A DNA stretch of 64,000 nt from Bryobacter sp. (lineage in GTDB: Bacteria > Acidobacteriota > Terriglobia > Bryobacterales > Bryobacteraceae): the NCBI GenBank assembly GCA_044340255.1, contig JBIITX010000001.1, positions 132,138 through 196,137 on the forward strand. Reading direction: 5' to 3'. The position numbers and the translations under genes are program-made. The notes beneath the pieces are model-generated. The model saw only the letters and a program-made list of their open reading frames with translations, was not told the origin of the DNA and did no database searches. Below are positions 1 through 5,938 of the stretch, in pieces. Numbering within the stretch: the stretch's first letter is position 1; every line of letters begins with the position of its first letter.

Positions 1-1
1 C

Positions 2-274
2 CATCCCGGAGAGATGTTGCTCAAAGAGTTCCTCGAGCCACTCGGAGTTTCGCAGTCCGACGCCGCAGCCCGGATGGACATTCCGTTCCAGCGCCTCAAC
101 GCCATTGTCAATGGCCGCCGTGCCGTAAGTGCCGAGACAGCTCTGCTCCTTCAGGACCTGACGAGATGGGACGCAGAGATCTGGCTGCAATTGCAGGCGA
201 AGTGGGACCTGTGGCACGCCATGCAGGCGCGCCGAATGGGGCCCAAGGTGCGCGCTCTCCCACGAAGCGCGTAG
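2..274 (+). CDS. higA: HigA-family addiction-module antitoxin (HTH), 5'-truncated by the window edge
   Basis: Frame open from base 2: HPGEMLLKEFLEPLGVSQ...RLNAIVNGRRAVSAETALLL...W+.LQAKWDLW, the HigA/VapI HTH signature. Confidence 0.85.
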   Translation, partial: HPGEMLLKEFLEPLGVSQSDAAARMDIPFQRLNAIVNGRRAVSAETALLLQDLTRWDAEIWLQLQAKWDLWHAMQARRMGPKVRALPRSA

Positions 275-448
275 TGTGGCCGGTTGATGTACTATCTTCA
301 GTGGCTGGATTCGCTCTGGCGAGCCCCCATGAGGCTCCCTTCTGGTGCCCTCATTGAAGTCAAATCTGTCAGCCTCAGTGTTACCCATCTGCCCGATTGG
401 TCAGCAGCATTTGGCTAGACCGCTGGCTCTACGGATCTCGCAAATAAC

Positions 449-580
449 TCAAGCCAGAATCGCTCGCACCACACTCCCATGCACGTGCACCGGGTCCGTC
501 ACAATGTTGTAGCTGAAATCATCCGTCTCTCCATAACTCATCCCGGCCTTCACCCCAGCCCCTGCCAAAAACACAGTAAA
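449..580 (-). pseudogene. Displaced 3' end of DUF1501 gene, copy 3 (96-bp in-frame internal deletion)
   Basis: Matches 4592-4819 except for loss of 32 codons; encodes [43 protein letters not shown]. Confidence 0.92.
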
Positions 581-667
581 CGAGTACGCGCTGAGAACCT
601 TCCGCAACGCCCTTTGATGTCCCGTCGCCATGAAACTCTACGCTGTGCCGTTGATGTGGATCTATCC
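581..667. repeat. Cassette end sequence R (copy in unit 2)
   Basis: CGAGTACGC-GCTGAGAACCTTCCGCAA..TGTCCCGTCGC.ATGAAACTCTACGCT.TGCCGTTGAT is shared with 2067-2208 and abuts the same DUF1501 breakpoint. Confidence 0.85.
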
Positions 668-696
668 CAAATCAGGTGCGTCCAAGCTTCCTCGAT

Positions 697-716
697 GGTA
701 CCGCCTGTGGTACCTT
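697..716 (+). promoter_or_regulatory. Probable hicAB operator / -10 region
   Basis: Two GGTACC palindromes (697-702, 709-714) 12 bp apart; the second overlaps a TACCTT -10-like hexamer 7 nt before the GTG start. Confidence 0.45.
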
Positions 717-722
717 CTAGGT

Positions 723-968
723 GTGTCAAACGCGGCGAAGCTGATCGCCAAAATGCGCAGGAATCCGCGCGATTGGCGTATCGAGGATCTGAAGGTGGTC
801 GCGCTCAGCTTGGGCATTGATCATGATCAGCACGGAACAAGCCACATGATTTTCCGACACGCTTCTGCGGGGCGTCTCTCCGTTCCTGCGCACCGTCCCA
901 TCAAGCCAGTGTACGTCCGTCTGTTTGTAGAGTTCGTCGACACCGTAGGTAAAAATCATGAAAATTGA
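723..968 (+). CDS. hicA: HicA-family mRNA interferase toxin
   Basis: GTG start; W..EDL..VA..LG......GTSHMIFRH....RLSVPAHRPIKPVYVR motif (GSH loop); stop overlaps hicB start. Confidence 0.85.
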   Translation: MSNAAKLIAKMRRNPRDWRIEDLKVVALSLGIDHDQHGTSHMIFRHASAGRLSVPAHRPIKPVYVRLFVEFVDTVGKNHEN

Positions 969-1317
969 CAAGTCCCTGATTCAATCCTATCCGTTCACGA
1001 TTCGTCCGCTGTCCGAAGCGGATGGGGGCGGATTTGCTATCGAGTATCCGGACCTGCCTGGGTGCATCTCCGATGGGGAAACCCCGGAAGAAGCCTTGAA
1101 ATGCGGTTCAGACGCAGTCAAGGCTTACATCCTGAATTGCATGAAGCACGGTGAAGCAGTTCCAAAGCCGAGCGCGGCTAGCGGCCAATGGCGGCAGCGT
1201 GTGCCCCGAAGCCTGCACTCTCGGCTGGTCGCCAAGGCCCGTGAGGAAGGCGTTAGCTTGAACACGCTGGTCACCGCGATGATCGCAGAAGGTCTGGGCC
1301 AGCGGCGGGCTTCCTAG
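958..1317 (+). CDS. hicB: HicB-family antitoxin with C-terminal RHH
   Basis: YPFTIRPLSEADGGGFAIEYPDLPGCISDGETPEEAL; C-terminal RVPRSLHSRL..KA..EGVSLNTLV. Confidence 0.9.
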   Translation: MKIDKSLIQSYPFTIRPLSEADGGGFAIEYPDLPGCISDGETPEEALKCGSDAVKAYILNCMKHGEAVPKPSAASGQWRQRVPRSLHSRLVAKAREEGVSLNTLVTAMIAEGLGQRRAS

Positions 1318-1691
1318 CGGCATCGGCACCGCTCCAGAAGGATTGTGATCATAAGTTCTGAAACATCACCTTTCGTGCGACCGGTCGTTCGACGCCTCAT
1401 CGAACGATTGTTCAGCGAATAAGACTGATGGAAGAGTAGCGACCTCGTTGACCGAGTCGTTCAAGCGCATAGCCACGCTGGCGGCTCGGTCGTGCCCAAC
1501 CCCAACTTCACCTCAAAACGGGTATGGAACGATCTCAAAAGTGACGGGTTGGTAACCAGCCATGGAAACGACCGCTCTTGCAACGCTCCAAACCTCAATC
1601 GCCGAGCCGGGCTAACGAAGCGCCAGAGCCAGTTTTGCGTGAATTTATGTGACCGCTGAAAACAGCGGTTGTAAGGAATGATTCCTGCCCT

Positions 1692-1839
1692 GTCGCAGAG
1701 TGTAAAGTTTTCGCCACTGCAGGGACTCAACCTTGCTCAGCGATAGTCCGGTGGGCGCATCGAGACGAGGAACGGACCGCAGCTTCTTCTCTGCTGCGCT
1801 CCTCAAAGAACCTTCCTCACGCGCAACCAACTCAACCCC
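1692..1839. repeat. Cassette end sequence L (copy in unit 2)
   Basis: GTCGCA.AGTGTA.AGTTTT..GCCACTGCAGGGACTCAACCTTGC.CAGCGATAGTCCGG.GGGCGCATCGAGACGA...CTCCTCAAAGAACC...CACGCGCAACCAAC.CAACCCC is shared with 4394-4591. Confidence 0.88.
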
Positions 1840-2066
1840 TCAGGCCAAAATCGCCCGCACCACACTCCCATGTACATCCGTCAGCCGAAAGTGCCGCCCC
1901 TGATACTTATACGTCAGCTTCGTGTGATCAATCCCCAGAATCCGCAAGATCGTCGCATGCAGATCATGCACATGCACCGGGTCCTTCACAATGTTGTAGC
2001 TGAAGTCATTCGTCTCCCCATAACTCATCCCGGCTTCACTCCAGCGCCTGCCAGAAACACCGTAAA
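1840..2066 (-). pseudogene. Displaced 3' end of DUF1501 gene, copy 2 (1-bp deletion)
   Basis: 227 bp nearly identical to 4592-4819; homology stops at TTTACGGTGTTT (minus strand). Confidence 0.95.
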
Positions 2067-2208
2067 CGAGTACGCTCAGATCCGCCCGACTGAAAGGATA
2101 AGCTTCGAATATCACGCCATCCGCCAAAACGCGCTGAGAACCTTCCGCAATCCCCTTTGGTGTCCCGTCGCAATGAAACTCTACGCTATGCCGTTGATCG
2201 TGATCTAC
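2067..2208. repeat. Cassette end sequence R (copy in unit 1)
   Basis: Homologous to 581-667 with an extra ~57 bp block (about 2076-2132). Confidence 0.85.
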
Positions 2209-2260
2209 CTGGCAATCCTTCCCAGAAGCTGCTCCCACCCGTGGTTGGGCCGCTTGCAGG

Positions 2261-4159
2261 TCAACGGCCGCCAATCAACCTCATGGCAGGAACGATATCT
2301 CCATCCACAATCTCGCTGGACCAGCGCCCCCAAATGCCACCCTGGCGGTAATTCCCGCCGGTGAACACGACCGCCAATTCGAGATCGGGAACCACGAGTA
2401 GAATCTGACCCCCATTACCCGTGGCAGTGTAGCTCGGATAGATACGCTCTCCGGAGCGGATACCGCCCAGATGCCAAGCATGGCCATCATCGCTTTCGCC
2501 ATAGGCGTCCCCGAACTGTTCCGCATCAAGGCCGGTCGTGGCGGGCGAGATGTGGACCTGGGGCGCTGTCGATTGCGCCACCCAGGAACGCTCGACGATG
2601 CGCCGTCCGCGCCACGCGCCGCCGTCAAGATAGGCCTGCCCGACCTTCAATAGATCCCTTGGTCGCAGGTATGCGCCGCCGCCCAAATAGCCTTCATCTG
2701 TCGGCATCAAATTCCAATGATAAGGGCCGAATTGCAGGGGGCGGGCGACCGTACGATCGAAAAACTCGGGCAGCCATGTCCTCGTTGCGGTCTTCAGGAC
2801 AGCCCCAACCAGGTTCATGTTCGCCGAGCAGTAGGCATAGCGCGTTCCGGGGTCGTGCGCCATTGGAAGATCCAGTGTGTACTTCCACCAATCCGGCTGC
2901 TGGAGCTGCGACTGCATGGTGCCCTCGTGTCCTGGTGACGCATCGTCGTAGTCGTTACAGGCAAGCCCGGAGGTGTGCGTCATAAGATGAGCAACCGTAA
3001 TCCTTGCCTTCCGCGGATCTGGGTTCGCGAACGGGCCCATGCGCGAGAGCAGGTCGTAGACGCTCGTCTCCGGCGAGACCTTTGCTCCCTGCATCATTGC
3101 GGCACCGAGTATGATCGAGGCAAAGGTCTTGCCGACCGACCGCGTGTCGTGCAGATCATCGCGATGGAAACCGTAGAAATACTCTTCGAGCACAAGCTTC
3201 CCACGATGCGCCACAAGCAGGGAATGTATCAGAGACGGGCGGCGGACGGAGGGATCGGCGGCAGCTAGCCGCCGCACGAGCTTTGTAAGCGCTTCCTCGT
3301 CGATGCCGCCGTCTCGGGCCCGGGCGGTACGCCAACCATCCCCCGTCACCGGCGGGCGACCGTAAACGTAAGGTGCATCGCCCGGAGGACGTGGAAAGAA
3401 ATTGGCTGCCTGTGAGAACGTGCGGCGGGTCAGCGCTATCCTGCGGTCGAGATCGGGCCAGTGAATCTGCAACGTGTCGCGGCTCAGAAGCACTCCTTCG
3501 TGCCGGAACGTGGGCGCCGCAGGGTTGGAGCCGGCGCTGAACCGGACGGCTTTGCCTTCACGCGTCACACGAAACTGCATGGCTCCGCCAACTGAGTTCT
3601 GCTCGGGATTGCGGAACGCCGCGAGCAACGCCCCCTCCGCGTCGCGGAAGATTCGAAGGTAGAGGGTCATAGGGGATTCAAGCGGCCGGACCGTGCCGCG
3701 CCATTTGCCACGACCCGCGCCCTGCAGGACGAGTGGTGTTGCAAACGGTTGGGTCGAGCCGGTGGGGAATCGCGGATCCGCCGATACACCAGGCTGGATC
3801 CAGAAGCCGTCGATAGCCCGCCCTGGGCCTGCCAGCGTGCCACGGAAGCGACCCAGGTTACCGGGGAAGTCGATGAGCACCTCGCGATCGGCTACTTGCA
3901 CGTTAGCTTCGGTGCCTGAGAGCTTCGCCCGCCAGTCTGAACCCTCGCGCACAACAACAAGGTCGCCCCTCAGGCTGACACCGACGTTAGCCTCGAAGGC
4001 CCAGATTCCGATCAGGTCGTCGTCTCGTCCGCTAAACTGATTCGAGCCCTGCGGGCGCGATTCCGTTGCTGCTGGTCGCTCTGTATTGGACTGACTGCTG
4101 GCGTACTGAACAACTGCCATACCTAACACTAGAAGTGAAACCAGAAATCTATTCTTCAC
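2261..4159 (-). CDS. Secreted serine hydrolase, beta-lactamase/AmpC-like fold with N-terminal extension
   Basis: GTG start giving signal peptide [23 protein letters not shown]; SxxK (RSVGKT), [23 protein letters not shown]. Confidence 0.85.
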
Positions 4160-4393
4160 GGGACTTACTCTCCGGTTCTGTGAAATTAAGTCGGAAGAAA
4201 TGTTGGCGGCCCAACTCCTATTTAGGCTGACCTGGACAAATCCGACGCTGGTCGGCCTAGTCCCGCCGTCGCTTCCATATAACCAGAGACTATACCAGCC
4301 TTGGCCAGTCAACACCACATCACATGAGCGAGATGTCGCCAAACAGTCGATGTGCCCGGCCCGGCCGCCAATTCCTTCGATAGATCGCGTGAA

Positions 4394-4591
4394 GTCGCAA
4401 AGTGTAGAGTTTTTGGCCACTGCAGGGACTCAACCTTGCGCAGCGATAGTCCGGCGGGCGCATCGAGACGATGATCGCAGCGCAGCGGCTTCTCTTCTGC
4501 TCTCCTCAAAGAACCCACATCAGATCAGTAGCTTCTCATGCCTCGAAAATCACCGCCCCCACCCCACCCCACGCGCAACCAACACAACCCC
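4394..4591. repeat. Cassette end sequence L (copy in unit 1)
   Basis: Homologous to 1692-1839 with an extra ~50 bp block near the DUF1501 stop. Confidence 0.88.
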
Positions 4592-5938
4592 TCAAGCCAG
4601 AATCGCCCGCACCACACTCCCATGCACATCCGTCAGCCTAAAGTGCCGCCCCTGATACTTATACGTCAGCTTCGTGTGATCAATCCCCAGAATCCGCAAG
4701 ATCGTCGCATGCAGATCATGCACATGCACCGGGTCCTTCACAATGTTGTAGCTAAAATCATCCGTCTCCCCATAACTCATCCCGGCCTTCACTCCAGCCC
4801 CAGCCAGAAACACCGTAAAGCAGCGCGGATGATGGTCTCGCCCATAATCCTCCGCCGTCAGCTTCCCTTGGCAATACACGGTCCGTCCAAACTCACCACC
4901 CCAAACCACCAGCGTGTCCTCAAGCAATCCCCGTTCCCCAAGATCCTCAATCAGCGCTGCCGTTCCTTGGTCCGTATCCCGGCACTGGTTCACAATCTGC
5001 CCGGGCAAGTGGTTATGCTGATCCCAGCCCCGGTGGAACAACTGGATAAACCGCACCCCTCGCTCCGCCAGTCTCCGCGCCATCAAACAATTCGACGCAT
5101 AAGACCCCGGTGTCCGTACCTCCGGCCCATACCGCTTCAAAGTAGCTTCTGATTCCTTCGACAGATCCGTCAACTCCGGCACCGAACTCTGCATCTTGTA
5201 AGCCATCTCGTACTGCGCCATCCGCGTCGCAATCTCCGGGTCTCCCGTCTGCTCCTGCTTCAGTTGATTCAAGGCCGCCAGATCATCCAGATAACTCCGC
5301 CGCGTCGCCGCGCTCACCCCCTCCGGGTTCTTCAAAAACAAAACCGGGTCGCCGTTCGAGCGAAACTTCACCCCCTGATACTTCGTCGGCAAAAAGCCAC
5401 TCCCCCACAAGCGGTCATAGAGCGGCTGGTCTGAGACATTGCCCGTCCCCTGCGAAATCATCACCACAAACGCCGGCAGGTCCTGGTTCTCCGTCCCCAA
5501 TCCAAACGACAGCCAAGACCCGATCGAGGGCCTTCCCGCCAACTGGAATCCAGTCTGGAAAAACGTCACCGCCGGGTCATGGTTGATCGCCTCCGTATTC
5601 ATCGATTTAATGAAACAAAGCCGATCCGCAATCTTCGCCACATGCGGCATCAGGTCGCTCACCCACGCCCCCGATTGCCCCCTCTGCTCAAACCGGAACT
5701 TCGATGGCACCAGCGGAAAGCTCGTCTGGGTCGCGGTCATCCCCGTCAGCCGCTGTCCCCGCCGCACCGAATCGGGCAACTCCTGCCCCAGCATCTTCAC
5801 CAGCGTCGGCTTATAGTCAAACAACTCAAGCTGCGAAGGCGCCCCGCTTTGAAACAGGTAAATCACCCGCTTCGCCTTCGGCGCAAAATCCGTCGTGGCG
5901 GCCATCGCCGCAGTCGCTAAAAATCCGCGCCGTGTCAT
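4592..5938 (-). CDS. DUF1501 domain protein (sulfatase-like, Tat signal)
   Basis: MTRRGFL Tat motif; [45 protein letters not shown]. Confidence 0.93.

Follow-up and report, generated by a model that had tools for sequence, protein, structure and literature searches.

A candidate accretion array of small recombinase-free modules behind a DUF1501 gene of Bryobacter, with border sites related to those of a transposon cargo slot

Behind a DUF1501 gene of Bryobacter sp. (assembly GCA_044340255.1, contig JBIITX010000001.1) the final 228 bp of the gene are present in three copies in direct orientation, and between the copies lie a hicAB pair and a gene for a beta-lactamase-fold protein. We read this arrangement as a tandem accretion array of small modules lacking recombinase genes, each of which would have restored the 3' end of DUF1501 when it arrived, and we put the probability of this reading at somewhat above one half (about 0.55). 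The genome (G000) is a metagenome-derived assembly of 6.4 Mb in 78 contigs, 99% complete; the stretch analysed, hereafter the window, comprises 64,000 nucleotides (C4:132138-196137) of its 301-kb contig C4. Positions are window coordinates unless a contig is named; G designates a genome, C a contig of G000, and L with three digits (e.g. L100) an extracted locus.

The DUF1501 gene (4592-5938, minus strand) is an intact open reading frame (ORF) of 448 aa that matches PF07394 and has orthologues at 75-82% in congeneric species. Its final 228 bp, the working 3' end, are copy A of the repeat (4592-4819, minus strand). Copy B (1840-2066, minus strand) is a displaced pseudo-end, 96% identical to A with one 1-nt deletion; copy C (449-580, minus strand), the most distal, is 92-97% identical to A and has lost 96 nt internally, between CATGCAC repeats. 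Copies B and C end at one identical base, ...CACCGTAAA|CGAGTACGC on the plus strand, which on the gene strand lies directly 5' of TTTAC(G/T)GTG. In gene orientation the array runs: gene, segment, R, cargo, L, segment', R, cargo, L, segment'', flank. Identity is about 88% between the R ends (1675-1839 and 4379-4591) and about 90% between the L ends (581-667 and 2067-2208), of which the 2067-2208 copy has 54 additional nt; the proximal copy A lacks an L end and the distal copy C an R end, as expected of attL/attR-type junctions. An earlier note on this DNA had described three copies, one shared break, two cargos and no recombinase, and repeat comparison and a domain search of C4 agree with it on all of these. 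Of the unit sizes it gave, 2753 and 1486 bp, the first corresponds to the 2752 bp between copy starts, whereas the second is 1391 bp by the same measure, 1486 having been counted from the register after the deletion.

The displaced gene ends bear a signature of import. Compared codon by codon, A and B differ by eight synonymous changes and one non-synonymous, as do A and C; B and C have just two changes in common, and the private changes of each of the three lineages amount to some 6-8 synonymous for one non-synonymous. The noncoding R and L parts, at 88-90% identity, fit the same age as the coding copies. Because a synonymous bias is not expected of copies that have been nonfunctional since a local duplication, the sequences indicate that each copy once served as the working end of a gene in its own lineage before being displaced, and the bias favours serial import over local duplication. 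The earlier picture of small, non-autonomous units stacked at the 3' end of a protein gene, and restoring it, is the one we retain.

The cargo nearest the gene (2261-4420, minus strand) encodes a protein of 719 aa whose C-terminal domain has a beta-lactamase fold (serine hydrolase; PF00144, E = 6.8e-30); an exact-sequence database look-up of the protein gave no record. Its gene-proximal border is the R1 site GATAGATCGCGTGAAGTCGCAAAGTGTAGAGTTT (4379-4412), an inverted copy of the L site found by our site model as a minus-strand match at C4:136512-136554; its distal border is the L1 site GAAACTCTACGCTATGCCGTTGATCGTGATCTAC (2175-2208, plus strand), separated from the break point by L part 1 (2067-2174), which includes 54 nt absent from L part 2. 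The second cargo (630-1317, plus strand) consists of a hicA-like gene (630-968) and hicB (958-1317); the match to HicA_toxin is weak, under the Pfam cut-off, and lies in the second half of the hicA-like ORF. It is flanked by the R2 site (1675-1710), which begins the R2 part (1675-1826, plus strand), and by the L2 site GAAACTCTACGCTGTGCCGTTGATGTGGATCTATCC (632-667, plus strand), the best match of site model R1, with L part 2 at 581-631. Further out is the antitoxin gene higA (14-274, plus strand), and a third L-type site lies to the left of the window, at -1019..-980 (C4:131119-131158). Since higA, higB and a 149-aa ORF are situated between this site and copy C, they are probably a third cargo, the oldest. 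The third site is 115 nt beyond a gene fusing sigma-70 and acyltransferase sequences; this ORF of 849 aa (L010:16317-18866) combines regions 2 and 4 of an extracytoplasmic function-type sigma-70 factor with an acyltransferase-3 membrane domain.

The same organization, built with other genes, is found elsewhere in G000 and beyond it. A second array (C6:6488-13076, locus L043) lies behind a DUF2237 gene and comprises five repeats of 400-600 bp and four cargos: a PNPOx-like gene; hicB with a DUF5076 protein gene; hicA with a gene for a 133-aa protein of unknown function; and a gene for a 292-aa unknown. Its layout is that of the C4 array, the copy beside intact DUF2237 having no L side and the most distal copy no R side. 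The break point lies 6 nt ahead of the DUF2237 stop codon, and each repeat keeps in its shared segment an intact small ORF (about 70 aa, no Pfam match). At the border the L motif is that of C4, and the R motif is related. A cassette standing alone (C57:61885-63648) encodes a 511-aa flavin adenine dinucleotide-type oxidoreductase; its R site is good, its L site degenerate, and it has no duplicated flank. In G262, which belongs to another genus, an insertion (L091:9666-11923, on G262:C7) sits behind a 118-aa gene: first comes an L site, then hicA and hicB, genes for a methyltransferase and a PIN-like protein, and after these a 60-nt copy of the 3' end of the 118-aa gene. In its hicB region the DNA matches the hicB cargo on C6 at 85% identity. 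The presence of the same cargo beside the same site, at other genes and in other genera, is the best evidence for mobility in this analysis.

Which parts of the L and R ends matter is suggested by comparing the arrays: the 35-40-nt site adjoining the cargo is the only L/R sequence that those of C4 and C6 have in common. The L site consists of GAAACTCTACRCTRYGCCGT, 6-8 variable nt and GGATCTATC, and the R side is an inverted copy with core GTCGCRNAGTGT. The conserved, functional-looking border is this inverted site pair beside the cargo and not the long L and R ends, which the earlier note had taken for dedicated arms; the R end is mostly a fragment of the right end of an IS3-family insertion sequence (IS), and the L end weakly resembles the same IS end, a likeness judged by eye. 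Alignment of the R1 part (4394-4550, plus strand) to two elements, a 1632-bp IS of G287 and the copy that G000 has on C43, shows that it derives from the right-end region and lacks the terminal 24 nt or so. In G287 it corresponds to the region from orfB to the right terminus of the element, which is present in six copies, with HTH_Tnp_1 in orfA and rve in orfB. A spacer of about 40 nt links the R1 fragment to the DUF1501 stop codon, and its stop-proximal 20 nt or so resemble the downstream flank of DUF1501 in the congener G018. The R2 fragment (1692-1826) starts at the same point beside the R site and has the same junction with the DUF1501 copy; compared with R1, it is missing an internal stretch close to its gene-proximal end. 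L part 1 weakly resembles the terminal portion of this IS3-type right end. Since the R1 and R2 fragments share both start and DUF1501 junction, and L1 and L2 are homologous, the DNA between cargos is a patchwork of DUF1501 end and IS fragments that goes back to one ancestral unit.

Members of this noncoding family of about 155 nt occur in 124 of the 251 genomes of the taxonomic family, G000 having them in the window at the two positions just given and at C57:8762-8915 and C43:106216-106371. For the interval between orfB and right terminus of an IS3-family element it is unusually long and well conserved, and it is present in roughly half of the family's genomes. Two other interpretations of the R region were discarded. 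As an RNA gene it fared poorly, consensus folding of both strands yielding weak energies and little covariation; an Rfam scan of 1-5200 returned nothing relevant. Nor is an integrase-like peptide of the R end coding: a stop codon breaks it in the C57 paralogue, and paralogous copies do not conserve it.

Common descent of the two units also lends itself to a local explanation: tandem duplication of one ancestral unit made up of the DUF1501 3' end, IS remnant, cassette and distal flank, and then replacement of cargo at the inverted sites, with no import of whole modules. We regard this as unlikely. It deals readily with the shared fragment start and DUF1501 joint of R1 and R2, with the homology of L1 and L2 and with the single, identical novel joint of both partial copies, and the transposon slot described below suggests that cargo is indeed exchanged at L/R sites. 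However, nonfunctional copies should gather random changes, and the B and C lineages show some six synonymous changes to one non-synonymous; and at the distal end of each array the target segment lies between flank and L part, which simple tandem duplication does not produce.

Searching for the border sites led outside the arrays to a compact Tn552/Tn5053-like transposon family, present in metagenome-assembled genomes of Acidobacteriota and Nitrospira, that carries a homologous L/R site pair. In these elements (L100:8541-15098; L110:8500-14660; L109:8500-14412; L106:2443-6129) a 47-bp terminal repeat is followed by tniA (HTH, rve, Mu-transpos_C), tniB (AAA_22), an L site 0-5 nt past the tniB stop codon, 0.5-3.3 kb of variable DNA, an R-type site (recognized by eye), res repeats of TGCAA type, a serine resolvase gene (192-196 aa) and a second 47-bp terminal repeat. 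The backbones of L109 and L110 are 94.5% identical and their cargo is entirely different; distant members, with TniB 48-57% identical to the query, have just 118-182 nt from tniB to the resolvase gene, no cargo and neither L nor R site. Because near-identical backbones share no cargo and the cargo-less members lack the sites, the site pair bounds an exchangeable cargo slot in this family. The L site is found in 71 metagenome contigs, and in 22 of these it immediately follows a tniB-like gene. It is not a terminal repeat of the tniA/tniB transposon, a possibility that would have placed the DUF1501 carrier within an element and is ruled out by the true 47-bp repeats and by the conserved resolvase block past the cargo; inspection of the transposons' left ends revealed no inverted L-site copy, and comparison gave no support to homology of the R part with their res region. 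With tblastn, TniA and TniB have no match in G000, and the closest match there to the transposon resolvase is a serine recombinase on C28, 35% identical.

Inverted sites of some 35-40 nt around every cargo, that of C57:61885-63648 with its unduplicated flank included, could also be the terminal inverted repeats of non-autonomous transposons, or mobile insertion cassettes, moved by a transposase in trans, the duplication of DUF1501 being an unrelated by-product. This we consider improbable. By eye, no cassette is accompanied by a target-site duplication, and a search around the C57 and C31 loci gave no direct repeats on their flanks; no autonomous element with such ends was seen; and the sites are sparse for transposon ends, the model finding them in 28 of the 251 family genomes at 1-4 copies per genome outside G000. 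(G000 itself has about a dozen convincing copies, including a solitary site on C31 and those of the C57 cassette.) Moreover, the shared break in DUF1501, and those in DUF2237 and the 118-aa gene, would be left unexplained. Inverted repeats are thus a feature in common with mobile insertion cassettes and with miniature inverted-repeat transposable elements, from which the array cassettes differ in lacking the target-site duplication.

Relatives show what the locus looks like without the array. G016 provides a clean empty site, for which the earlier note had suggested looking: the DUF1501 stop codon is 68 bp from an HbpS-like gene, which in G000 lies outside the window, 7.4 kb to the left of its start and about 7.8 kb past copy C. 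In other congeners 0.9-6 kb of unrelated DNA occupies the orthologous locus, and these inserts (L033:3986-10029, L034:9177-10062, L040:2299-4288) differ in every species; inspected by eye, they contain toxin-antitoxin pairs (MazF-like, DUF433/DUF5615, PIN) and class C/D beta-lactamase-like genes. Neither an L/R site nor an IS remnant is present at the orthologous locus in nine congeners, and the L and R ends have no match in 60 relatives, in which only the DUF1501-coding part of the repeat is matched. By these comparisons the DNA downstream of DUF1501 is a genus-wide hypervariable spot, and the array is specific to the G000 lineage. The expectation that the ends would recur was borne out for the border motif, which accompanies other cargo on C6, on C57, in G262 and on many metagenome contigs, and not for the exact ends with their DUF1501 junction, absent from the 60 relatives and from a metagenome scan.

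The many toxin-antitoxin and hydrolase genes at this hypervariable spot across the genus would also fit integrase-bearing islands or prophages that had integrated serially at the DUF1501 3' end and then lost their integrases and most other genes. Elements with tyrosine integrases, e14 and phage 21 at icd among them, leave such a signature, a duplicated gene 3' end with synonymous differences. We nevertheless find decay of this kind a rather poor prospect: no integrase fragment was detected in or near the units, the integrase-like peptide of the R end being unconserved in paralogues, and the six or seven units of the two arrays all measure 1.4-2.8 kb, keep their cargo ORFs intact and are precisely bordered by the same inverted sites, which is unlike the outcome of random decay.

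The genome being metagenome-derived, collapse or mis-joining of strain variants during assembly has to be considered as well, particularly as short-read contigs of other samples break within the repeats: two Logan contigs end within the repeated DUF1501 segment and the JGI 3300044625 contig within R1. Such an artefact is very improbable. Parts of the array recur in order in four assemblies made independently from other samples (JGI 3300044625, Logan SRR27419349, Logan SRR27421202 and ENA ERZ27272069), three having the order higA, copy C, hicAB, copy B and the fourth DUF1501 followed by R1; the copies differ consistently by indels and substitutions; and a second array with the same logic is present on C6.

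How might such arrays grow? In the accretion reading a module would arrive as a unit, presumably a circle, comprising cargo, the two inverted 35-40-nt sites, IS3 fragments as passengers and its own 228-bp DUF1501 end. Recombination with the resident gene would take place inside the shared DUF1501 segment or at its upstream edge, so that the incoming copy takes over as the working 3' end, while the end used until then is pushed downstream as a pseudo-end. With an entry point adjoining the gene, the beta-lactamase-fold module would be the youngest, hicAB older, and higBA with orf149 the oldest. The enzyme joining module to DUF1501 segment could be a site-specific recombinase supplied in trans, or RecA acting on the 228 bp of homology; both are possible because no clear core is common to the three break points, of which one falls inside DUF1501, one 6 nt ahead of the DUF2237 stop and one 60 nt ahead of that of the 118-aa gene. 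Cargo, for its part, would be swapped at the inverted border sites by a conservative site-specific recombinase. The circular intermediate, the type of joining enzyme and the swapping itself we infer from the arrangement of the parts.

Two enzymes are conceivable for swapping. One is the resolvase of the transposon family, whose TGCAA-type res repeats are unlike the L/R sites. The other is a family of Xer-like tyrosine recombinases, a member of which stands beside an L-like site in the cargo of a transposon in G159; G000 has a 69% homologue (C57:50849-51796), 11 kb from the C57 cassette, with no L/R sites beside the gene. Since G000 lacks tniA, tniB and a close homologue of the resolvase, the array is probably static at present.

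Several observations weigh against accretion. The exact junction of L part and DUF1501 had no match in the metagenome scan, and no array of exact L sites was seen in any other genome. Of the seven tyrosine and two serine recombinases of G000 none is on C4 or C6, and neither array is linked to one: the flanking ORFs are DUF1501 and PSCyt-PSD on C4, DUF2237 and CinA on C6, no Phage_integrase or Resolvase domain was found on the whole of C4, and no recombinase is encoded among the ORFs of the 12 kb to the left. The identical fragment, start and join of R1 and R2 and the homology of L1 and L2 imply a single ancestral unit, which fits duplication too. Finally, comparison of the C4, C6 and G262 break points brings out no clear core in common. 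A further cluster of recombinase genes in G000, two serine and two tyrosine within 14 kb at C28:174000-188000, is probably a mobile element.

The closest known patterns, by analogy, are those of e14 and phage 21 and of accretion by cis-mobilisable elements (CIMEs). At icd of Escherichia coli, e14 and phage 21 bring in a 3' end of the gene, leaving the old end as a pseudo-fragment at the far junction, and the differences between the two are mainly synonymous; the incoming and displaced DUF1501 ends likewise differ mainly at synonymous sites. Those elements, however, are of prophage size with their own tyrosine integrase at the junction, whereas the units described here are integrase-free, 1.4-2.8 kb long, and stacked two or three deep on C4 and four deep on C6. 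CIMEs are reportedly elements free of recombination genes that accrete in tandem at fda in Streptococcus thermophilus, in the manner of the integrative and conjugative elements (ICEs) ICESt1 and ICESt3, between att-type repeats of the gene's 3' end, and are presumed to be mobilised in trans; the tandem islands at ssrA in Dehalococcoides are said to be a related case. Each unit of the C4 array similarly lies between direct repeats of the 3' end of its target gene. CIMEs differ in sharing their att site with the integrase of a known resident ICE and in lacking inverted cargo-border sites; an autonomous, integrase-bearing relative using the att of the array was found neither in G000, nor in the 60 relatives, nor in the metagenome junction scan.

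With integrons and clusters of attC sites lacking an integrase the arrays share ordered small cassettes, often toxin-antitoxin genes, entry at one end and imperfect inverted repeats at the borders. They differ in having no IntI (no PF00589 match on C4 or C6), in a repeated unit of 400-600 bp that contains a gene fragment, and in restoring a protein gene. Sites of attC type have RYYYAAC ... GTTRRRY cores and measure 57-141 bp; the array has none with such cores, and the bases following its conserved GCCGT vary, unlike RRRY. In the pdif modules of Acinetobacter plasmids, inverted pairs of 28-bp XerC-spacer-XerD sites surround a module, and the resemblance extends to recombinase-free cargo, often toxin-antitoxin, and to short sites alternating in orientation along the array; by contrast, the L/R sites show no evident 11-6-11 structure or dif-like dyad around a spacer of 6-8 nt, and the arrays are chromosomal, behind a gene with a duplicated 3' end. 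Lastly, the L/R sites are homologous to the cargo borders between tniB and res-resolvase in the Tn552/Tn5053-Tn402 relatives, although the arrays are not inside a transposon and G000, as noted, lacks the transposon genes. To our knowledge, a defined cargo slot with inverted border sites has not been described as a feature of Tn552 or Tn5053.

The earlier note's suggestion of an integron-like array of no described kind was thus too strong: neither attC nor IntI is present, as it said, but restoration of a 3' end by e14 and phage 21 and integrase-less accretion of CIMEs are described principles, to which the array comes closest. What is new is the very small size of the recombinase-free modules, their two stacks in one genome and their connection, through the inverted sites, to a transposon cargo slot, this last link being the more novel part and one that the earlier note did not foresee. 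The array looks like a little-described route of gene capture. A wider proposal, which we offer tentatively as a possibility on the doubtful side, is that Acidobacteriota maintain an integron-like cassette economy with no linked integrase, in which conserved inverted pairs of 35-40-nt sites would define exchangeable slots common to Tn552/Tn5053-like transposons and chromosomal arrays, and growth behind ordinary genes would proceed by replacement 3' ends, served in trans by serine resolvase, Xer-like recombinase or RecA.

If the accretion reading is correct, soil acidobacteria would gather and swap small adaptive modules (toxin-antitoxin genes, hydrolases, oxidoreductases) behind housekeeping-type genes, needing neither an integron nor an integrase within the element. 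The module borders would double as the cargo slot of a widespread transposon family, linking gene capture on the chromosome to the turnover of transposon cargo. They would also supply a defined short sequence by which such cassettes can be found in metagenomes, and the arrays would offer a clean test case for the mobilisation of recombinase-free elements.

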